Shown here: in pieces, positions 19,436 to 44,710 of the stretch | Layout: each line of letters opens with the position of its first letter | Numbering within the stretch: the stretch's first letter is position 1 | Origin: Myxococcales bacterium | GTDB taxonomy: Bacteria > Myxococcota_A > Polyangia > Haliangiales > Haliangiaceae | Direction: 5' to 3' | Length of the DNA stretch: 64,000 nt | Assembly: GCA_016707895.1 (NCBI GenBank) | Contig: JADJGV010000002.1 | Coordinates: forward strand, 399,695-463,694 | Position numbers and translations under genes: made by a program | Notes under the pieces: generated by a model | Databases searched by the model: none | The model's input: the letters and a program-made list of their open reading frames with translations, nothing else | What the model was told of the DNA's origin: nothing

Positions 19436-19618
19436 CTCGCCGCCGATGGTAGCGCGGCCGTCGGGGCGGCGCCTGTCACCCGCCGGGTTACAACTGGCAC
19501 CGAGATGGCGACACGGTCCGCTCCACCGCTACCATACACGCGTCGCGCGATGGCCGTGGGTTTGCAGAGTTGGCCGAAGTCGGGAGCCCACACGTCGACC
19601 CGTCCAGGAGCACTTCGC

Positions 19619-20791
19619 ATGCCAGCTCGTCTCTTCGTCACTGCTTGTGCGATCGCCAGTGCGCTCGCGGCCACCACCGTCTCGATCCGCGTCGCAGGGG
19701 CCGGGTGCAACGCCTACCGCTGCGGCGGCAACACGCCGATCCTCTGGGGGACCTTCATCCGCGGGCTCAGCACCACCGGCGAGGCCAACGCCGAGCGGGT
19801 CGTGCTGCGGCCGGAGTTGATCCCGTCGGGCACCGGCACCTGCGCCGGCACCGACATCAAGCTCGCCTCGGTCGACGGGCGCCTGCAAGGCGTCCGCGAC
19901 GGCGTCGAGGTGTGCGCCGACGCGGCGCTGGTCGGGTCGGCGTTCGATCTGGACGTGCCGTACAAGGCGCTGACGATGCGGGTGCGGGTGCTCATCTCCG
20001 AGATCAGGACGGTGTCGACCTGGGAGGTCGAGGGCGCGACCGTGCTGCCGACCTACCGCTTCGAGGTGGTGGCCAACGGCGCGATCGCCGCGCCGGGCGA
20101 GCCGCCGCCCGACGGCGCGCGGCCGTTCGGGCCGGTCACGCCGTCGCCGCTATGCCAGGAGACCGAGCGGTGGATGGAGCGGTGGCAGAACGACGGCCTG
20201 GTGCCGGTGCTGGAGACGCCGTCCGGTGGCCTGATCCGCTGGGACAATCCCCCGGGCACCGTCGGCCAGCAGTGGCAGCAGGGCACCGACCACGCGCTGA
20301 TCGTCAGCGGCGAGACGTACACCGAGACCGGCTCGTCGGCGGCGATCGGGCAGCAGTGGTTCCAGATCGCGTGCGCCGGCTCGGCGATCGCCAAGATGCG
20401 GCTGCTCGGGATCGATCCGTGGGAGCCGCGCGCGGTCGCTGGCGGGCTCACCACCGCCACGCTCAAGATGATGGGCGCGCGCTACGGCGGCGACGTCGCG
20501 TTCACGCGGCCGGGCACGCCGGTGCGCTGGGAGCGCTGGGACGCGCGGCGATTCTACGGCGGGCCGGCGCGCGAGTTTGCGCCCGGGCCGTCGGAGGCGA
20601 CGTGGACCCGCAGCGGCGCGGCGTGCGTCGATCACCTGCGGCTGATGCGGGCGAGCCTCGGCAGCCGCTGGCTCACGTGGGTCGAGGGCATCGCGCTGGT
20701 GTCGCTGGCGCGCGAGTACCGGCTGCGCCCGTGCCCCCGCACCGCCAGCGCAGTGTGGACGACCACGACGGTCGATCACGTCGCGCACTGA
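19619..20791 (+). CDS. Hypothetical secreted protein (390 aa)
   Basis: ATG at 19619 with signal peptide MPARLFVTACAIASALAATTVSIRVAGAGC. Confidence 0.45.
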   Translation: MPARLFVTACAIASALAATTVSIRVAGAGCNAYRCGGNTPILWGTFIRGLSTTGEANAERVVLRPELIPSGTGTCAGTDIKLASVDGRLQGVRDGVEVCADAALVGSAFDLDVPYKALTMRVRVLISEIRTVSTWEVEGATVLPTYRFEVVANGAIAAPGEPPPDGARPFGPVTPSPLCQETERWMERWQNDGLVPVLETPSGGLIRWDNPPGTVGQQWQQGTDHALIVSGETYTETGSSAAIGQQWFQIACAGSAIAKMRLLGIDPWEPRAVAGGLTTATLKMMGARYGGDVAFTRPGTPVRWERWDARRFYGGPAREFAPGPSEATWTRSGAACVDHLRLMRASLGSRWLTWVEGIALVSLAREYRLRPCPRTASAVWTTTTVDHVAH

Positions 20792-20875
20792 GTCCCAACA
20801 GGGCGTGTCGCAACGCGGTCCCCCGTCGGGTCATGCCCCGCCGGGGAACCTCCCAAGATCCGCGGCTGCGAAGCC

Positions 20876-21640
20876 TCAGGCCAGCGGCCCCGGCCGCTCC
20901 CACAGGCTCGGTGCCGGGCCGCCGCGCTTCCAGCCGCCCTGCATGAGCCAGGTCTGTGGCGCCGCGGTCGGCATCGGCTCGAAGTCCTTGGGCCACGCGA
21001 ACGGCACGCCGTCGCGCTCGGCCCAGCCGGCGAAGGCGACGCCGCTGGCGTAGCGATCGAGCGGCGCGCGGCGCTGCCCGACGCCGGCGTGATCCTCGCG
21101 GTGGCGGCGCCAGTTGTTGAGCACGTAGGCCAGCGCGTGGCGGGCCTGGCGCGGCTTGCTGAGCGTCGTCGCGTGGTAGCGGTCGGTGAAGACGCGGCCG
21201 GCTCGCGGCACTCCGCCAGCGATGGTGACCGCGCGGTTCAGCCGCTTCGCGGCTGAGACGCACAGCGCGCGGACGCCGTTGGCCAGCGCGCGGCGGTCGT
21301 CGGCCTCGCAGAGCAGGTGGATGTGGTGGCGCTGGATCGACAGGTGGACGACGCGGAAGTCGGCGCGCCCGACCAGCGCGATCATCGCCGCGCGGACGGC
21401 CGCGTACGCCTGCGGCCGGCGCAGGCGGCCGACCTGCCGGGTGACGCGCAGGACGACGTGGACAGGCAGGCGGCGATCGTGGAACGGCCGCGCCCGGTGC
21501 TTGCCGCGGGCCGGGCCGGGCAGCGTCCGCTTGCGCCCGGCGCCGGCGCGCTTGCCGCCGTGACCGTTCGCGTTGCCCGCGCGCCGCGGCGCGCCCTCGG
21601 TCCTCGCCAACCCCAGCTGCCTCGACATCCTCGCCCTCAT
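20876..21640 (-). CDS. IS200/IS605-family Y1 (HUH) transposase-like protein (RAYT-like)
   Basis: N-terminal GGKRAGAGRKRT motif. HuH motif RHHIHLL. Catalytic Tyr context TDRYHATTL. Matches the IS200-like transposase fold (PF01797-like). Confidence 0.65.
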   Translation of the reverse strand: MRARMSRQLGLARTEGAPRRAGNANGHGGKRAGAGRKRTLPGPARGKHRARPFHDRRLPVHVVLRVTRQVGRLRRPQAYAAVRAAMIALVGRADFRVVHLSIQRHHIHLLCEADDRRALANGVRALCVSAAKRLNRAVTIAGGVPRAGRVFTDRYHATTLSKPRQARHALAYVLNNWRRHREDHAGVGQRRAPLDRYASGVAFAGWAERDGVPFAWPKDFEPMPTAAPQTWLMQGGWKRGGPAPSLWERPGPLA

Positions 21641-21923
21641 GATTGGGCCAATATAGGCACTGGGCGCGAGACGTCAAGGCGCGAGGAAGATTCAGTGAGG
21701 GGGTACAGACTGATCTGATCCCTGACAGCTCGTCCCCGGGACCCTGACAGGCGAGTGCGGCGAGTGCCTGCGAGCGCGGATCGGGAGGCGAGGACCGCCC
21801 GGAGCGCTGTCGCCTTGGAGATGCCGACCGTTGCTCGTCCGAAGGCCTCACAGACTCTGAGCGCACACCCACCGGCGCTGCGTTGACGGCGATGACCGCC
21901 GGCGCTACAGATGCCGAGCCACG

Positions 21924-22610
21924 ATGACGCCGCCGACACCAGCGACGCCCGCGCGGCGGCCGACCGGGCACGGCGGCTGGCGGCCGGGCGCAGGGCGGAA
22001 GAAGCGGCCGGGGTCGGATCCGCACCTCCCGCGCGCGCGGTTCGCGGCGGCGACGCCGGTGTACGTCACGGTGAAGCTGGCCGAGGACGCGCCGACGCTG
22101 CGCACCGCGGCGGTCGCGCGGGCGGTGTGGGCCGCGATCGAGGCCGGGCACCGCGACGACTTCCGCGTCGTGCACTACGGCGTGCTCGGCGATCAGCTGC
22201 GCTTCGTCGTCGAGGCGGCCGGGACGCAGGCGCTCTCGCGTGGGATGCAGGGGCTGACCATCCGGCTCGCGCGACGCATCAACGCGCAGCTGGGACGCCG
22301 CGGCAAGCTGTTCGCGCAGCGCTACCAGGCGCGGCCGCTGCGCACGGCGGCGGAGGTGCGCGACGCGATCCGCGACGTCTTGCTCGGCGCGCGGGGCGCC
22401 GGCGCGCGGCTCAAACTCGGCGCGATCGATCCGCACTCGAGCGGGCTGTGGTTCGACGGCTGGAAGGCCGCGGCCCGCACCGACGTCGCGTGGCTGCGCG
22501 CCCTGGCCAAGGCCGGTCGCCCGACGGCGGCGCCGCGCACGGCGCTGCTCGCGCGCGGCTGGCACACCGCGGGCGGGCCGCTCGACGTCGACGACGCGTC
22601 GCGGTCGTGA
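21924..22610 (+). CDS. Paralog of the IS200-like Y1 transposase lacking the HuH histidines
   Basis: Same architecture (GGWRPGAGRKKRP ... FRVVHYG ... AQRYQARPL), but the HIH motif is replaced by LRF. Divergently oriented to 20876..21640. Confidence 0.55.
   Translation: MTPPTPATPARRPTGHGGWRPGAGRKKRPGSDPHLPRARFAAATPVYVTVKLAEDAPTLRTAAVARAVWAAIEAGHRDDFRVVHYGVLGDQLRFVVEAAGTQALSRGMQGLTIRLARRINAQLGRRGKLFAQRYQARPLRTAAEVRDAIRDVLLGARGAGARLKLGAIDPHSSGLWFDGWKAAARTDVAWLRALAKAGRPTAAPRTALLARGWHTAGGPLDVDDASRS

Positions 22611-24802: not shown

Positions 24803-24806
<4 letters not shown>
24234..24806 (-). CDS. TPR-repeat protein with signal peptide and C-terminal TM helix (190 aa)
   Basis: MSRRVAVGVCALIALVLGVGGARA signal. 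TPR repeat (YAKGDKLFALGKFDQALVEFEAAYE...). ATGA overlap with the upstream kinase stop. Confidence 0.6.
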
Positions 24807-26764
<1,958 letters not shown>

Positions 26765-26865
26765 GAAAGGTCGGGTGCGACGGGCACACCCGGACCACCT
26801 TGTATTCTACGGTCGCCTACGGACGGGGGCAACGGCTATCGCCGCCTGGCGGTAGGGGCGGGGGG

Positions 26866-27210
26866 CCTTGTCAGGCTTTCGGACAAGCACCGGTCGGCGC
26901 GCGGGGAGTCTCGCGTCGCGGGGGAAGGGCTCGATCCCGGCTTTGCCCGACGTCCCCGACGAGCCCTCGAGGTTCACGCGGCGCGGTGAGCCACCTGCCT
27001 CCACCTGGGCTCGGCGACGAGCCCCCTGGAACCCAGAGCCTGTCAGCGTTTCGGTCGAGCACCGGTCGGCGCGCGGGGAGTCTCGCGTCGCGGGGGGAGG
27101 CTCGATCCCGGCTTTGCCCGACGTCCCCGACGAGCCTTCGAGGTTCACGCGGCGCGGTGAGCCACCTGCCTCCACCTGGGCTCGGCGACGAGCCCCCTGG
27201 AACTCAGCGC
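26866..27210. repeat. Tandem direct duplication of a ~172-bp intergenic element (2 copies, ~95% identical)
   Basis: Copy A is about 26866..27038 and copy B about 27039..27210. Both begin CCTGTCAG(G)C(G)TTTCGG...GCACCGGTCGGCGCGCGGGGAGTCTCGCGTCGCGGGG and end ...CGACGAGCCCCCTGGAAC. The element lies between the kinase start (26764) and the 3' end of the next gene (27204). Confidence 0.8.
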
Positions 27211-27785
27211 CCGCCGGTCAGGCACAGCGGGTCGATGCGGTCCAGCGCGGTCTGCAGGGCGGCCTTGACCTGGGGGTTGGTCTCCCGGGTGTTCTGGACC
27301 CGCAGCGGCGAGCAGGCCGCCGGCGAGGAGGTCGCGGCCAGCGCCAGCGCCGCCGCCGCGCGCACGTCGCGGAGCTCGCTGGTGAGGTTGGCCGCCAGCG
27401 CCGGCACGGCGTCGGTCCCGCCGTTCTCGCCGAGCCCCTCGATCGCCGCCATGAGGTAGATGCGCTCGAGGCGATCGTCGCTGTCGCGGAACGCCACCAC
27501 CGCCGAGGTCAGCGCGGCCCGGGCGATGTTGTCGGGGAACTGGCCGAGCGCGCGGTAGGCCCGGGCGCGCATGCCGACGGTCACCGCGGGGTCGCTCGAG
27601 TTGACCACGACCAGGAGCTGCGACAGGTCGCCGGCCAGGGCCTGCTCGAGCGCGGCGCGGCTGGGCAGGTAGTCGAACCCCGAGAGGATCTGCTCGAGCC
27701 GGGTGCGCGCCAGGACGTTGCCGTCGGCGGCGGGCGCCGTGGCGAGCAGCGCCGTCAGCGCCAGGAGCGCGCGTTCGAGCCTCAT
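27204..27785 (-). CDS. Secreted HEAT/PBS-lyase-like repeat protein (193 aa)
   Basis: ATG at 27785 with signal peptide MRLERALLALTALLATAPAADG. HEAT-like repeats. ATGA overlap with the upstream gene's stop. Confidence 0.55.
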   Translation of the reverse strand: MRLERALLALTALLATAPAADGNVLARTRLEQILSGFDYLPSRAALEQALAGDLSQLLVVVNSSDPAVTVGMRARAYRALGQFPDNIARAALTSAVVAFRDSDDRLERIYLMAAIEGLGENGGTDAVPALAANLTSELRDVRAAAALALAATSSPAACSPLRVQNTRETNPQVKAALQTALDRIDPLCLTGGR

Positions 27786-29344
27786 CGCAGCACCGGGCTC
27801 GCGCGCAGGATCTCGCGCTGTTCGGTCGACAGCGAGGTGCCGCCGTCCTCGCCCCAGTACATGAGGTTGTCGTCGGAGGTCGGGCTGTCGATCAGCGGAT
27901 CGTCGGCGCCCTCGGGCTCGGGCTCGCGGTTGCGGTACAGGCCCAGGTGCCGCGCGATGGCGTGGGCGGTGGTGCGCGCCAGCCGATCCCAGGCCGGTTC
28001 GTCGCGGCGGGCCGGGTCGGTGTTGTTGCACAGCGCGGTCGCGGCGATCGCGACGCCCGAGGCGCCGGTCCGCGGCAGCGGCGCGCCGGGCGTGCCACCG
28101 ACGACGGCCTCGAGCCCGGCCGGCATGATCGTGCGGACGAAGAACACCGAGACCCCGCGATCGTCGTCGGCGGTCGCGAACAGCTCGCCGGCGCGCTCGC
28201 TGGCCAGCCCCTCGAGCTCGACCGGCGCGGCGGTCGCCTCGTAGGTCACGGTGCCGATCGCGATGTTGGCGGCGGCGAAGATGTCGCGCAGGCGCTGCAG
28301 GAACACCGTCTGGAACTGCGGATCGACCGGCGCCGTGGTCGGGCTCAGCGCCGGGACGTTGGGCAGGCACGGGTGATCGGTCAGGTCGGCGAAGTGGAAG
28401 TGCAGGTCGAGGGTGGCGCCCGGGCCGAGCTTCTCGACGATCCGCACCCGTCGGCCCTCGAGCGTCACCCCCGGGCGATCGGACGAGCTGGTGATCGTCA
28501 TCGTGTACACGCCGGCCTGGAGCGCCACCGCCGACGTCGACGGGATCTGCAGCACCGCGACGCCGGGCAGCGGCTTGTGGCGCAGCGCGCCGGCGAAGTA
28601 CTCGGCGATCGTGGTGGGCGCGGTGAAGATCGACGCGTTCTCGGGATCGGTGACCGCGGTGACGCCGATGCGCTCGTCGGCCTGCGCCGCCTCGGCGACC
28701 AGCACCAGCGACGTCGCGTTGTTGACCACCGGGATGATCAGCGGCTGGCTGACCTGGGGCCGCAGCGGCACCTCGAACGTGAGCGTGGCGCGGGTGGGCA
28801 GGCAGCCGTAGTAACCGCCGAGGAACGAGCTGGCGTCCGACGACACCCGGGGGATGCCGACGCACTGGAAGCCGCGCAGGCACTCGCTGTCGACCTCGCA
28901 CAGCTCGGTGCACCGCCCCAGCGCGCAGGCCCCGACGCGACAGTCGGTGTCGATCTGGCAGGTCGAGCCGACCACGCCACCGGCGGTGGCCTCGCGCTGG
29001 CAGGTCCCGTCGCCGGCGACGAACGCGTCGATCGGCAGCCGGCACGATTGGCCGGGGCCGCAGTCCGCCTCGCCATTGCAGCTGTCGCCCACCTCGGTCT
29101 CGACCAGCCGGCAGGTGTGGGAATCACACACCCGGCCATCGCCGCAGTCGACGTTGGCCAGGCAGCCGGGCCGACAGATGTGATCCAGGCACTGTAGGCC
29201 GCTGGCGCAATCGGCTACCGTCGCGCAGCTCTCGCCGACGTCGGCCCCGCCGCCGCCGCAGCCGAGCGCCCCGATGGCCATGACGACCCCAGCGATCCAC
29301 CGAGGCGGACCTGCGGGCGGCCGGTTGGATGCGGATCGGGCCAT
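27782..29344 (-). CDS. Secreted lipoprotein with N-terminal EGF-like Cys-rich repeats and large C-terminal domain (520 aa)
   Basis: MARSASNRPPAGPPRWIAGVVMAIGALGC lipobox. Repeats of the form CxxxxDCxxGxxCxxxxC. Confidence 0.55.
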   Translation of the reverse strand: MARSASNRPPAGPPRWIAGVVMAIGALGCGGGGADVGESCATVADCASGLQCLDHICRPGCLANVDCGDGRVCDSHTCRLVETEVGDSCNGEADCGPGQSCRLPIDAFVAGDGTCQREATAGGVVGSTCQIDTDCRVGACALGRCTELCEVDSECLRGFQCVGIPRVSSDASSFLGGYYGCLPTRATLTFEVPLRPQVSQPLIIPVVNNATSLVLVAEAAQADERIGVTAVTDPENASIFTAPTTIAEYFAGALRHKPLPGVAVLQIPSTSAVALQAGVYTMTITSSSDRPGVTLEGRRVRIVEKLGPGATLDLHFHFADLTDHPCLPNVPALSPTTAPVDPQFQTVFLQRLRDIFAAANIAIGTVTYEATAAPVELEGLASERAGELFATADDDRGVSVFFVRTIMPAGLEAVVGGTPGAPLPRTGASGVAIAATALCNNTDPARRDEPAWDRLARTTAHAIARHLGLYRNREPEPEGADDPLIDSPTSDDNLMYWGEDGGTSLSTEQREILRASPVLR

Positions 29345-30159: not shown

Positions 30160-30172
30160 GGCCGCTGGGAGG

Positions 30173-30847
30173 TCAGGGGCAGCGCGCGTCGACGCGCCCC
30201 AGCGCTTCGTCGAAGGCGTCGGCGGTGGTGGTTGGGGGCGGCGTGGCGTCGAGGAGGGTGATGCCGACGAGGCGCAGGCCGAGCGTGGCGTCGGGGACGA
30301 ACAAGAGGTCGAAGCCGAGGGCGCCGTCGGCGTCGGCGTCGATCGCGCAGGTGGCGACCGGGATGCCGGTCGCGGGCGCCAGGCCGCTGTTGTCGCAGAG
30401 CAGCTGGTAGCCGAGCGCGGTGTCGGCCAGGGCCGCGGAGGCGACCTTGCCGAGGCGCGCGAGGGCCGGATCGAGCGCGGCGCCGCACAGGCGACCCATC
30501 GTCGCGGCGACCGGCTTGCTGGCGTCGTCGAGCGTGCGCAGCTCGACCACGCCGAACTTGCGATCGGTGACGCGGGTCCATGGTTGCGTCCCGGCCAGGA
30601 GCGCGGTCACGAGCTCCTCGGTGGCGACCTCGGGCAGCTCGGTCGGGCTGGCCAGGCCGGTGCGCTTGCCGGCGCGCAGGGTCGGCTCGTCGGCGCCGCT
30701 CGCGGGTTCGGGGACGTCGGCGTCGATCGCCGGCGGGGCGGCGGCGTCGAGGGCGGGCGGCGGCGGCGCCGGCGGCGCGGCGGACTTCGACTTGCACGCC
30801 GCGGTGGCGGCGACGGCGGCGAGCGCGAGGGGCAAGGCGCGGGGCAT
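30173..30847 (-). CDS. Hypothetical lipoprotein
   Basis: MPRALPLALAAVAATAAC lipobox. A GTG at 30865 is also possible. Confidence 0.45.
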   Translation of the reverse strand: MPRALPLALAAVAATAACKSKSAAPPAPPPPALDAAAPPAIDADVPEPASGADEPTLRAGKRTGLASPTELPEVATEELVTALLAGTQPWTRVTDRKFGVVELRTLDDASKPVAATMGRLCGAALDPALARLGKVASAALADTALGYQLLCDNSGLAPATGIPVATCAIDADADGALGFDLLFVPDATLGLRLVGITLLDATPPPTTTADAFDEALGRVDARCP

Positions 30848-37400: not shown

Positions 37401-38519
37401 GCTCGCGGGCGAGGGCGGCGCGACGCGCGCGGCCGGCGGGTTGGTGGCAGGGCCCGGGAGATCGTCGAAGAAGCCCTTGGGCGCGGGGAGATCGACGCCG
37501 CCCTTGCCGGTGGCGGGGCCCGGGAGATCGTCGAAGAAGCCCTTGGGCGCGGGCAGGTCGGGGCCCTTCGGCGTCGCGGGGCCTGGGAGATCGTCGAAGA
37601 AGCCCTTGGGCGCGGGGAGATCGACGCCGCCCTTGCCGGTGGCGGGGCCCGGGAGATCGTCGAAGAAGCCCTTGGGCGCGGGCAGCTGCGCGTTGTTCGC
37701 CAGCGGGCGCGCCGGCGGGATCGTCGGCGGCATGCCACCGACGGTGCGCTTGGGCTCGGGCGGCGGCGCGGCCGCTGGCCGCTTGGGCGTGGGCAGGTCG
37801 CCGATCATCGGCCCCTTGGGCGCCGGCAGGTCGTCGAACAGGTCGTTGCCGCTGGCGCGCTTGGGCGCGGGCAGGTCGCTGATCGCCGGCGGCCCCTTGG
37901 GCATCGGCAGGTCGCTGATCGCCGGCGGCCCCTTGGGCATCGGCAGGTCGCTGATCGCCGGCGGCCCCTTGGGCGCGGGCAGATCGACGATGCCGGCGGG
38001 CGGCCCCTTGGGCGCGGGCAGATCGACGATGCCTGCCGGCGGCCCCTTGGGCGCGGGCAGGTCGACGATGCCTGCCGGCGGCCCCTTGGGCGCGGGCAGG
38101 TCGGTGTACGGGCCGCGCGCGGTGGCCTTGGGGGCGTCGGCCGGCGCGGGCGCGCCGCGCGGCGAGGGGCCGACCGGCGCGACGAGGTCGACGCCGTCGA
38201 GCGTGAACGGCTCGGGCTCGCGCGGCTTGGGCACCGCCTTGGGCGCCGGCAGATCGACGATCGCCGACGGCGACGGGCCCTTGGGCGCAGGCAGATCGAC
38301 CGCCTCGACGCGCCCACCGGGCACGCCCGTGGGGGACGGGCGTCGCGGCGCGGGCAGATCGGCCAGGTCGATGACGTCGCCCGTGCCACCGGCGACGTCG
38401 CCCGGGACCACGATGCGCGCCTTGCACTTCGCACACGACACCGTCTTGCCCGCCGGCGGAATGTCAGCCGCGGGGAAGCGGTACATCGCGCCGCACACGG
38501 CGCATGCCACTTCCTTCAT
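34449..38519 (-). CDS. Giant (1356 aa) zinc-ribbon / Pro-rich repeat / TM / TPR-repeat protein
   Basis: N-terminal CxxC...CxxC zinc ribbon (MJ0042-like, MKEVACAVCGAMYRF...SCAKCKA). Tandem DLPAPKGPPAGIV and DLPAPKGFFDDLPGPATGKGGV repeats. A TM helix, then about 800 aa of TPR repeats. Confidence 0.75.
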   Translation of the reverse strand: MKEVACAVCGAMYRFPAADIPPAGKTVSCAKCKARIVVPGDVAGGTGDVIDLADLPAPRRPSPTGVPGGRVEAVDLPAPKGPSPSAIVDLPAPKAVPKPREPEPFTLDGVDLVAPVGPSPRGAPAPADAPKATARGPYTDLPAPKGPPAGIVDLPAPKGPPAGIVDLPAPKGPPAGIVDLPAPKGPPAISDLPMPKGPPAISDLPMPKGPPAISDLPAPKRASGNDLFDDLPAPKGPMIGDLPTPKRPAAAPPPEPKRTVGGMPPTIPPARPLANNAQLPAPKGFFDDLPGPATGKGGVDLPAPKGFFDDLPGPATPKGPDLPAPKGFFDDLPGPATGKGGVDLPAPKGFFDDLPGPATNPPAARVAPPSPASMFDDLPPAKSPAPAIGLFDDLPPPSVPRAERFPAPAPSVAPGAALEGIDLPPPSGGSGMIELEPTNASARSVPATPRTHAPSEPPPALELGDGDPLGLDLPASPAAAAAAGRGVVSFKAGASTSPGSDSRAPATNTGDIDLAVPRRDAPAQPKVRATPKAGPAKAKLSPRAAKLVLAAVLGVGAVGAGGFFMYKRWDAQQTRAADLDRNLKAARKAALANDETHWRRAARAADDVLALDKRNAEALGIAAQAALVAYVEEGTQAEARLANGRRLLETATTNGAHHPTVDKAAAVRDLIEGDYTGAIAALKPLAARGDADAQLYLGWAQAGAQEWAAAQQAFTAALTARPVAATYGLAQAQQAGGDVAAAHASYLKVIELAPEHVGALVGEVLTAPNSDLGKRETSLLAILQRAGIDKADPRAVVLAWTRAGDEARRGGRLDAARDRYRKALAILPGDRGVLVSLAATELADGKIDAAAEAADKALALAPDDVDAALTAAEIDLRRAKIPEAAARLAALRERKPPITAPALLGRLDMIDGHRLEAEKNPAAALAAYERAATALGAGDIAPTIAAATLLGHMADAAKTPEDAAALRARADAKLTTIAAAATSDAGIAIALGVAYLSAGAAPQAERWLRSAIEQRPTEVEAHYQLAEALRRQGKQDEAVATLVKAFELDPSRIDLGVELARGFEAARRDADAAELYRKLLRLPDVTVETKIRAGRFFARTGDIAAARALGDELLAVTPDDPTGLFLKGEGLLLDKRYSEARRVMQEATSRSPDAQFLEGLGRVSEKFSGQTGDTAVRDEALRAYDQAALLDESIVNAWAGAGRIRLARGEYDKAITAFKKALEKDPGNADLPYGLGMAYVELEDRANAVTWLTKAVAAQPRADAYYKLGELYYEGDRAGPAASALERATTLATTDERKDGVTVPWLTDALWLLGTVQQVMHNDGATIRAWEAYLARNPKNQAQAEEVRRYLTARGR
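37250..38110. repeat. In-frame tandem repeats (39-bp and 66-bp units) inside the zinc-ribbon/TPR gene
   Basis: GGCCCCTTGGGCGCGGGCAGATCGACGATGCC... units are reiterated at least 6 times. GGGCCCGGGAGATCGTCGAAGAAGCCCTTGGGCGCGGG... units occur 4 times. Confidence 0.7.
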
Positions 38520-43578: not shown

Positions 43579-43662
<84 letters not shown>

Positions 43663-43733
43663 AAGGCTGACAACCGAATAGCTCGATCGTCGTTTTCTTT
43701 CTCGCTCGTCCATCGGGTCCGCCGATGGTCGAA

Positions 43734-43824
<91 letters not shown>

Positions 43825-43892
43825 CTGACTTGGCCGCTGCGAGCGCTCCGTACCGCTCGTGTCCGCTTCTCTATGTCCTAGCTTTTGTGTTT

Positions 43893-43965
<73 letters not shown>

Positions 43966-43968
43966 CTG

Positions 43969-44631
<663 letters not shown>

Positions 44632-44710
44632 CACGACGTCTGTGAACCCCGCCAGGTCCGGAAGGAAGCAACGGTAGCGGAACTAGTGGGTGCCTGGGGC
44701 CACTTTTCTT

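Follow-up and report, generated by a model that had tools for sequence, protein, structure and literature searches.

A tandem pair of hairpin-rich units between a HEAT-repeat gene and a kinase gene of a Myxococcales bacterium, probable members of a dispersed REP/BIME-like repeat family placed behind stop codons

In a stretch of 64,000 nt from a Myxococcales bacterium (assembly GCA_016707895.1, contig JADJGV010000002.1, positions 399,695 to 463,694; hereafter the window, by which we mean this whole stretch), the spacer between a HEAT-repeat gene and a Ser/Thr kinase gene holds a head-to-tail array of two nearly identical units at 26866-27207, which raises the question of what this duplicated DNA is and to which of the two genes it belongs. 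An initial annotation, made by reading the sequence, placed the array in the 5' region of the kinase gene and proposed either a structured RNA or a small non-autonomous mobile element, namely a MITE (miniature inverted-repeat transposable element) or a relative of the repetitive extragenic palindromes (REPs) and bacterial interspersed mosaic elements (BIMEs). Here, we assign a probability of roughly 0.7 to the reading that the two units are copies of a dispersed, non-coding, hairpin-rich repeat, constituting non-autonomous mobile DNA with the logic of Y1-type transposition; the family would be REP/BIME-like, and possibly an IS200/IS605-like mini-element.

Tandem Repeats Finder reported one array at 26869-27211, with a period of 171, 2.0 copies, 94% matches, 0 indels and a score of 623, and alignment of the two copies with MAFFT gave a mean column identity of 96%. 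The two ~95% identical head-to-tail copies originally described between the kinase start (26764) and the end of the upstream gene are therefore confirmed, and their unit length is corrected from 172 to 171 nt. Copy 1 (26866..27036, plus strand) is proximal to the kinase gene, and copy 2 (27037..27207, plus strand) to the HEAT gene. A 36-mer of the unit occurs exactly twice in the window, with 0 occurrences expected from shuffled sequences, and no third full-length 171-nt copy is present in these 64 kb, whose G+C content is 73.7%. The overlapping open reading frames (ORFs) called in three frames across the repeat are spurious, as the initial annotation had it, and represent artefacts of the repetition.

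Read on the plus strand of the window, a complete member of the family is built of module A, hairpin H1, a G-rich linker, a variable middle, hairpin H3 and the tail T-GGAAC-TCAG, in this order. Module A, the 5' part of the element, reads TCAG-(A/C)GCC-TGTNAGTYTTTCGGTYGAGCACCGGTC, with the pattern ...TCAG-AGCC-TGTNAGTYTTTCGG...GAGCACCGGTC. H1 has the form GRCGCG, a 10-nt loop and CGCGTC (GGCGCG, 10-nt loop, CGCGTC in copy 1), is located at 26896..26917 in copy 1 and 27068-27089 in copy 2 (plus strand), and is followed by the linker GGGGGGAGG. The middle is usually H2, a hairpin of 10-12 bp found in 32 distinct variants, nearly all of them perfectly paired; in the long form, represented by the window copies, it is a segment of ~75 nt that ends in CCACCTGCCTCCACCT. 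H3, that is GGGGGCTCG-GCGA-CGAGCCCCC, sits 5-6 nt from its element end and occupies 27007..27024 in copy 1 and 27178-27195 in copy 2 (plus strand; GGGCTCG-GCGA-CGAGCCC). Copy 1 thus comprises module A, H1, the long middle, H3 and a tail GGAAC-CCAG, in which CCAG is a degenerate TCAG, and copy 2 ends in GGAAC-TCAG. Complete copies carry TCAG at both ends; copy 1 is without it on the left. Module A is truncated or missing altogether in many copies, and H3 was also seen standing alone (e.g., at the loci L055, L047 and L058). As a separate observation, a head-to-tail sub-array of four 37-38-nt module A/H1 pieces (GCACCGGTCGACGCGCCTGGCATCTCGCGTCCCGGG) adjoins a complete element at L095 1742-1873.

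Two versions of the unit, of 123 and 171 nt, have both ends in common and different middles, and their H3 hairpins are related by a compensatory change (GGGCTCG...CGAGCCC in the 171-nt version, GGGCTGG...CCAGCCC in the 123-nt version). This hairpin accounts for the GGCTCG...CGAGCC inverted repeats of the initial annotation; it is present in both copies and displays compensatory changes across the family. When 100 distinct copies were fitted to a covariance model, paired cells amounted to 92%, versus 82% in shuffles, and changes on both sides were found in 20 of the 27 model pairs, values reached by none of 500 shuffles; the slid controls had 31-50% paired cells. The stem of H3 covaries and its GCGA loop is kept across the family, even where the whole stem has been replaced, as in GGAGGTGCG...CGCACCTCC, GAGGGCGTG...CACGCCCTC and GGGAGGGTCTTT...AAGACCCTCCC, the last of these at 59.8 kb of the window. 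One of the two inverted motifs with which the copies had been said to begin, CTTGTC...GACAAG, is found in copy 1 only, does not stand out from shuffles (z -0.27), and is not a feature of the family.

The distribution of the element was assessed with a 21-nt pattern of H3 (the hairpin plus CCCCCT) scanned over metagenome contigs, which matched at least 100 stretches, nearly all of them bearing the same modular element. A covariance model built from 40 copies (R1), together with an nhmmer profile, returned 104-119 matches at 87-91 distinct loci in metagenomes and in related metagenome-assembled genomes (MAGs) of Myxococcota, figures that represent a lower bound; copy 2 itself scores 63.8 bits with R1 (E 3.9e-15). 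Three further copies, each at the 3' end of a gene, were present in 73 kb around homologues of a Y1 transposase (L123-L126), sequences that had been fetched for another purpose. Copies outside the seed occur about once per 90 kb, the overall density is estimated at about one per 25-90 kb, and the window contains one array locus and one diverged member in its 64 kb; extrapolated from density rather than counted, these figures suggest on the order of a hundred or more family copies per genome. A 20-mer from the middle of the long form gave 8 chance matches of 20-27 nt in a genome collection of species representatives, among which the source genome is not included. Adjacent or tandem copies are found at about one tenth of the loci, and arrays of the family are head-to-tail with the modules in a single orientation, the only head-to-head pair being that of L113. 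The diverged short member of the window (59828..59890, minus strand; R1 E 3.5e-4) consists of an H2-like hairpin, an H3-like GGGAGGGTCTTT-GCGA-AAGACCCTCCC and CTTGTC-TCAG, and immediately follows the TGA of a YbaB/EbfC gene (59499-59831; PF02575, E 4.5e-30), whose stop is the TCA of the member. The hosts are uncultured, Kofleriaceae-like Myxococcota; the closest named homologues of a neighbouring protein come from Kofleriaceae and Myxococcales MAGs, and an exact look-up of the kinase protein retrieved no identical sequence on record.

A strict rule governs the position of the element. Of 88 flanks beyond its GGAAC-TCAG end that could be decided, 79 are coding on the opposite strand, so that a gene converges on that end. 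The stop codon of this gene is exactly the TCA of the terminal TCAG (+5..+7 after CCCCCT) in 45 of 56 converging genes, and it is TGA in 55 of the 56. The base following TCA is G at 55 of 60 loci, which gives C-TGA on the gene strand; in the background, 42% of long ORFs have C ahead of TGA, and 75% of stops are TGA. In genes for outer-membrane-type proteins the terminal Phe is kept right at the element junction. The array of the window conforms to this arrangement: the HEAT-repeat gene (27204-27785, minus strand; 193 aa; Pfam HEAT_2) lies upstream of it, and its TGA stop (27204..27206, minus strand) is the TCA of the terminal TCAG of copy 2. In the element-free lineages L121 and L010 the HEAT protein likewise has 193 aa and the same stop position; because the stop is unmoved in these two lineages, the stop codon is the gene's own and the element begins directly behind it.

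On the gene strand, the unit can be written as CTGA|GTTCC-H3'-...-module A'-GGCTCTGA|, that is, it follows one CTGA and ends with another, and both junctions contain C|TGA. The junctions of the window array, ...GGGCGCTGA|GTTCC (copy 2)...GGCTCTGG|GTTCC (copy 1), and that of an array at L012, ...GGCGCTGA|GTTCC..., fit this reading. Together, the CTGA register and the fixed orientation would constitute statistical evidence, as distinct from observed events, for strand-specific insertion 3' of CTGA. Published work locates REPs downstream of genes, whether the following gene converges or is co-directional, and has them provide stop codons (PMC3733652), so that stop-linked placement as such was already known.

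Orthologous loci, recovered by means of the HEAT protein, differ in their number of copies. The window, as reference, has 2; the locus L009 (GCA_005793525.1), with ~98% identical flanks, has 1; and 0 copies are found in L018-L020 (~90% identical), in the related lineage L121/L122, and in L010-L017 (69% protein identity). A second polymorphic spacer, situated ~3 kb away between the stops of two convergent genes, holds the 123-nt version in distant relatives, with 1 copy in L010 and L011, 2 tandem copies in L012, and 0 in the window and L009; its ortholog in the window is an empty site at 30160..30175. Copy number also differs at one locus between L025 and L039. Relatives thus carry 0, 1 or 2 copies at two loci, a variation that the initial annotation had proposed looking for.

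The single copy of L009 bears on the origin of the array. Compared with the window along the gene strand, all 5 differences private to copy 1 fall within the first 115 positions and all 6 private to copy 2 after position 153, with a single change private to L009. By this pattern, the L009 copy is a clean chimera in which the outer part of copy 2 is joined to the outer part of copy 1. Since so clean a partition has a probability of 1/462 under duplication followed by random mutation, the array points to an origin by recombination or re-insertion rather than by duplication and drift. Two histories would fit: two differing members stood side by side, L009 having lost one by crossover between them, or else the single copy was joined by a second member, which arrived through one crossover or entered at a CTGA. 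At its module A end, copy 2 has the family consensus (TTTCGGTCGAGCACCGG), and copy 1 and L009 share a variant (TTTCGGACAAGCACCGG), because of which the comparison favours an array derived from two distinct family members. In L018-L020, the HEAT protein has 198 aa instead of 193; the sequence there (L018 880-960) equals that of the window minus the elements and 7 nt (GCGCTGA), and the frame runs on to a TAG located 5 nt before the -35 box of the kinase promoter. This state, as an ancestral empty site into which the element would have brought the stop, was considered and rejected, given the 193-aa proteins with the same stop in the element-free L121/L122 and L010; secondary loss of the element together with 7 nt is the better reading.

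Among the alternatives, the one that best survives holds that the family is primarily an RNA, i.e., a structured module of the 3' untranslated region (UTR), a 3'-UTR-derived small RNA, or an antisense RNA, its spread being secondary; we regard this as unlikely, although several features agree with it. The three hairpins covary strongly, the GCGA loop of H3 persists through replacement of the whole stem, the 90% orientation bias locates the element in the 3' UTR of a gene, and many REPs have been argued to act as RNA (PMC3733652). Moreover, the gene strand displays a C-rich CCUCCCCCC and CUCCC between or in the hairpins, which could pair with Shine-Dalgarno sequences, and for the antisense variant, H3 on the other strand has a GCGA loop of the GNRA type. 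Hairpin covariation is, however, equally expected of single-stranded DNA substrates, and counts of G-U versus A-C pairs single out neither strand (50 versus 43 overall, 11 versus 4 by distinct variant). The folding energy of the whole unit, suggested earlier as a check, is unexceptional with respect to shuffles on both strands (z +0.4 to +1.1); such single-sequence folding is uninformative because the DNA has 74% G+C. Rfam provided no match to the unit: 0 hits with Rfam 15 at E<=1 in 26000-28000, only tRNAs and the signal recognition particle (SRP) RNA at gathering score in the whole window, and only chance-level matches, on L118, at permissive thresholds (E<=1-10); no description of the family was found in that database. 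The unit contains no promoter-like site, and 26600-27400 contains 0 terminator-like sites, with no T run after H3 on either strand; the element therefore lacks the G+C-rich hairpin plus T/U run of an intrinsic (Rho-independent) terminator. Besides, hundreds of copies, presence/absence polymorphism, truncated copies and solo hairpins typify mobile or REP-like DNA. From the structured-RNA branch of the initial proposal, the hairpins stand by virtue of their covariation, but neither Rfam nor the wobble counts lend it support; a role as RNA may still be a secondary or alternative function of the element. A tRNA-like or tmRNA-like reading of the unit was also tried and rejected, since ARAGORN calls nothing there.

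Its size of 120-171 nt, its intergenic location, the TCAG at both ends of complete copies and its presence/absence polymorphism would also suit a classical MITE, which would have arisen by deletion from an insertion sequence with a DDE transposase and would possess terminal inverted repeats and a TCAG target-site duplication. We consider this improbable, as the two ends of the element are different modules, module A on one side and H3 plus GGAAC on the other, instead of inverted copies of each other. A comparison of CTCAGAGCC with the reverse complement of GGAACTCAG revealed no terminal inverted repeat, the 6/9 matches obtained resulting from TCAG, which is a direct repeat and the sole sequence common to both ends; a target at one end and the element's own terminus at the other would account for its presence at both ends just as well. 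Furthermore, orientation to the target gene is fixed, unlike that expected of a symmetric element, and no DDE transposase bounded by the modules was found in 766 kb of element-bearing loci. The mobile-element branch of the initial annotation thus holds in its REP/BIME-like form, with the dispersal, the polymorphism at two loci and the flanks of a Y1 gene described below speaking for it, and not in its strict MITE form.

There is a very slight possibility that the array regulates the kinase gene, as a leader or upstream element that this strain has duplicated. The kinase gene (24803..26764, minus strand; Pkinase E 7e-46; ATG at 26764) is a neighbour outside the element, and the array does lie 100-440 nt upstream of its start codon, on the same strand side. 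However, a sigma-70-like promoter (TTGCCC-17-TAGAAT; 26804..26832, minus strand) is located between the array and the kinase start, and this promoter with its leader is conserved in all recovered orthologous loci, whether the element is present or absent. Because the conserved promoter lies downstream of the array, the latter is the 3' flank of the HEAT gene and not a kinase leader, and elsewhere the family adjoins unrelated genes while being anchored to the stop of the gene on its other side; the placement in the kinase 5' region is accordingly replaced by a tie to the stop of the upstream HEAT gene. Finally, a private tandem duplication of spacer DNA without wider meaning, the outcome that uniqueness of the unit to this locus would have implied in the initial annotation, is hardly conceivable, for although only two full units exist in the 64-kb window, the unit is not unique, the family being dispersed over more than 87 other loci, and the differences between copies are partitioned in a way that has a probability of 1/462 under duplication plus random mutation.

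A candidate for the enzyme lies in the window, 5 kb from the array, where the initial annotation had recognized a pair of Y1 transposase homologues; the pair is real. The first ORF (20876-21640, minus strand; 254 aa) resembles REP-associated tyrosine transposases (RAYTs): it matches Pfam Y1_Tnp (E 5e-7; 30.3 bits against a gathering score of 23), its motifs read HIH and Y-V-L-N-N, and it has 1393 homologues at E<=1e-20, many of which are named RayT by JGI. The second (21924..22610, plus strand) is divergent in orientation from the first and 33% identical to it, shows LRF in place of HUH and has no Pfam match. This ORF, probably a decayed paralogue, stops 4 nt from where the next gene stops, so that no family modules lie behind it.

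The first Y1 ORF lies within a candidate full-length, perhaps autonomous, copy of the family (20788..21856, minus strand; 1069 nt) that would comprise module A, the ORF, the linker, H2, H3 and the tail. Its 5' flank (21865-21813) reads GCGCTCAGAGTCTGTGAGGCCTTCGGACGAGCAACGGTCGGC, the start of module A (local alignment score 39 versus 16.4 +/- 2.5 in the null; R1 E 0.0016), and its 3' flank (20868-20785) contains ...TCTTGGGAGG, an H2 hairpin, an imperfect H3 with a GCGA loop, and TTGGGAC-TCAG, with ~85% identity over 80 nt to the family member L045:4350-4485 (score 95 versus 17.3 +/- 2.7). The two best R1 matches in 20500-22100 are these two flanks, on the strand of the Y1 gene and in the right order, and CTGAGTYCC and ACAGRCTCTGR are each found only at the array and at the Y1 flanks. 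The tail TCA (20789-20791) is, in turn, the TGA stop of a converging ADYC-domain gene (19505-20791). Because the flanks are family modules and the tail TCA is the ADYC stop, the Y1 gene is situated inside a 1069-nt copy placed according to the position rule. Such is the appearance expected of a gene-bearing parent of the short elements, and the arrangement is also the one that defines REP/RAYT systems. Drawn from the flanking modules of the window alone, the link of the Y1 gene to the family is suggestive, and we put forward this RAYT-like gene, tentatively, as the best candidate for the mobilising enzyme. A tblastn search with the Y1 protein in the 766 kb of element-bearing loci gave one match, at L117, 11 kb from an element; there is no tight Y1-element linkage in these sequences, as expected if the gene is low-copy.

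Several additional features were noticed around Y1 genes. By eye, another stretch similar to the beginning of module A (CGCCTGTCAGGGTCCCGGGGACGAGCTGTCAGGG; 21715-21750, minus strand) can be made out in the interval from the module A copy to the Y1 promoter. Upstream of Y1 homologues in L123, L124, L126 (9600-10000) and L127 (1-120) there is a conserved non-coding region of ~300 nt, with GGTGTGGGCAACCGCGC...GCGCGGTTGTCCAC and one or two GGCAACTCCACAGCGCCCTCGGAGCC, unrelated to the window flanks. In L117 (1540-1640) and L125 (10860-10890), a Y1 paralogue (82% identical) is followed by 1-2 copies of another hairpin, CCTGA-CGATCGGATGGGGATCG, which adjoins CTGA/TCAG and may represent a second repeat family with the same end logic.

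A number of findings weigh against the interpretation of the family as Y1-type mobile DNA, or against the enzyme proposed for it. The Y1 protein scores 24.4 bits with the NCBIfam RAYT equivalog NF047646, below its cut-off of 80, and by sequence it has no significant match among solved TnpA structures, the only hit being ISDra2 TnpA (E 0.4). On the 3' side of the Y1 gene, similarity to the left end of the family consensus is not significant (p 0.15-0.34) and becomes so against one subfamily member only. Seven loci with Y1 homologues of 81-92% identity (L117, L123-L128) share just the ORF and ~55 nt of promoter upstream, their remaining flanks being different, and unrelated flanks of Y1 homologues also occur in some genomes that bear the family; because the closest homologues have other flanks, the assignment of the enzyme is kept tentative. 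Regarding the element itself, no GTAG or CGTC tag stands beside its hairpins: the sequences next to H3 are GGGG/CCCCCT on one strand and GTTCCA on the opposite one, and GTNAG occurs in module A, away from the hairpin foot. The module A end forms a weak hairpin at most (4-5 bp), which folds no better than shuffles, and copy 1 lacks the terminal TCAG-AG at this end, so that at least one junction of the array is non-canonical. All metagenome copies were found through H3, hence the constancy of the H3 end and loop is partly built in, and the per-genome copy number is an extrapolation. Lastly, no excision product, circle junction or de novo insertion was observed, and clean filled/empty pairs within one species are confined to the two loci.

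With these reservations, the Y1-type reading suggests the following mechanism. The element would enter strand-specifically 3' of CTGA, without inverted ends or duplication, by the action of a Y1 (HUH)-type enzyme on a single-stranded hairpin that lies a few bases away from a short, fixed cleavage site, and the RAYT-like protein encoded inside the 1069-nt copy would be the best candidate for this role. Cleavage by TnpA_REP enzymes takes place at C|T beside REP hairpins, whose loop bases can be essential (PMC8266576). Arrays would grow by further entry at either CTGA, or by a single crossover with another copy, and would shrink by recombination between copies. By analogy with REPs, the likely effect on the host would be to give the upstream transcript stable hairpins at its 3' end.

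The comparison with REP/BIME and RAYT systems ("REPtrons"; PMC2817692, PMC3733652, PMC8266576) reveals common traits as well as differences. As in REPs and BIMEs, the element is made of G+C-rich hairpins, is extragenic and of high copy number, and lies downstream of genes, between convergent or co-directional genes, its ends often supplying the stop codon; it forms mosaics of several hairpin types and local clusters, conserves loop bases while stems vary, displays the C|T step at both junctions and, in this window, flanks a Y1 HUH gene with its repeats. Unlike REPs, it lacks the GTAG/CGTC tag that defines them (PMC3733652), is anchored to CTGA/TGA rather than TAG, and is a unit of 120-171 nt with three different hairpins in one orientation instead of a palindrome of 20-40 nt; unlike REPINs, it forms head-to-tail arrays with no inverted doublet and has two dissimilar ends. 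The window Y1 protein likewise departs from RAYTs in its score below the NCBIfam cut-off and in its homologues elsewhere, which the family does not flank.

The resemblance to IS200/IS605 elements and their ORF-less derivatives (palindrome-associated transposable elements) concerns architecture: neither inverted ends nor a target duplication, a left end unlike the right one and a hairpin near one of the two, an apparently strand-specific placement immediately 3' of a fixed tetranucleotide with the element ending in a similar one, and one 1069-nt copy with a Y1 gene enclosed by the ends that the 120-171-nt copies also have. On the other hand, module A offers a weak hairpin at its end, a single Y1 gene was found between such ends, and the protein it encodes resembles RAYT-annotated proteins more closely than IS200 TnpA; transposition, guide-sequence pairing and a circular single-stranded intermediate are features of IS200/IS605, whereas the present element is known from its sequence. 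Thus, the element behaves like a REP/BIME and is built like an IS200/IS605 derivative.

Other dispersed repeats offer partial parallels. Mycobacterial interspersed repetitive units (MIRU-VNTR; VNTR, variable-number tandem repeat) are reportedly dispersed units of the 50-100-nt class in co-directional spacers, in one orientation, and are said to form head-to-tail arrays of strain-variable copy number whose ends overlap the stop of the upstream gene; they are reportedly not hairpin mosaics, and are said to contain small ORFs by which the translation of neighbouring genes would be coupled. The element is alike in spacer position, orientation, arrays and stop overlap, but has no conserved small ORF. 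The RIME and ERIC families of Proteobacteria are non-coding units of 100-180 nt with several large palindromes, located in transcribed spacers; the element bears no sequence relationship to them, and the fixed stop-codon register is a trait of the element and not of these families.

Most of what is known of REP/RAYT systems comes from Gamma- and Alphaproteobacteria, and the manner in which REPs spread is unsettled. A targeted full-text literature search turned up no REP or RAYT work on Myxococcota. It is conceivable, if rather doubtful, that the family represents an undescribed Y1-driven mini-element of Myxococcota: an asymmetric IS200/IS605-like unit, of 120-171 nt when ORF-less and 1069 nt with a RAYT-like gene, that would take C-TGA stops as its target on one strand, enter precisely behind them, and build arrays by repeated entry at the CTGA of each copy.

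Apart from this family, the window displays other repeats and RNA genes. Long tandem repeats that look in-frame are found at 51448-53778 and 61636-62536 (141 nt x 7, 186 nt x 6 and ~250 nt x 4), with 62-98% identity to the reference copy, and are probably repeated protein domains; repeats of 36/39 nt and 63/66 nt at 37444-38272 (CTTGGGCGCGGGCAGGTCG...) presumably correspond to a low-complexity coding repeat. A cluster of tRNA-Ser(TGA), tRNA-Ser(GCT), tRNA-Arg(ACG) and tRNA-Ser(GGA), followed by a small SRP RNA (63 bits), occupies 43579-44709.

For the genomes of these Myxococcota, the element has consequences at three levels. In annotation, it marks true gene ends and can alter C-termini, the HEAT protein of one relative being 5 residues longer at this junction. 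As regards mobile DNA, the choice of target and strand is readable directly from the junctions of this family. Moreover, copy number varies between near-identical strains, so that the element may serve as a strain marker.

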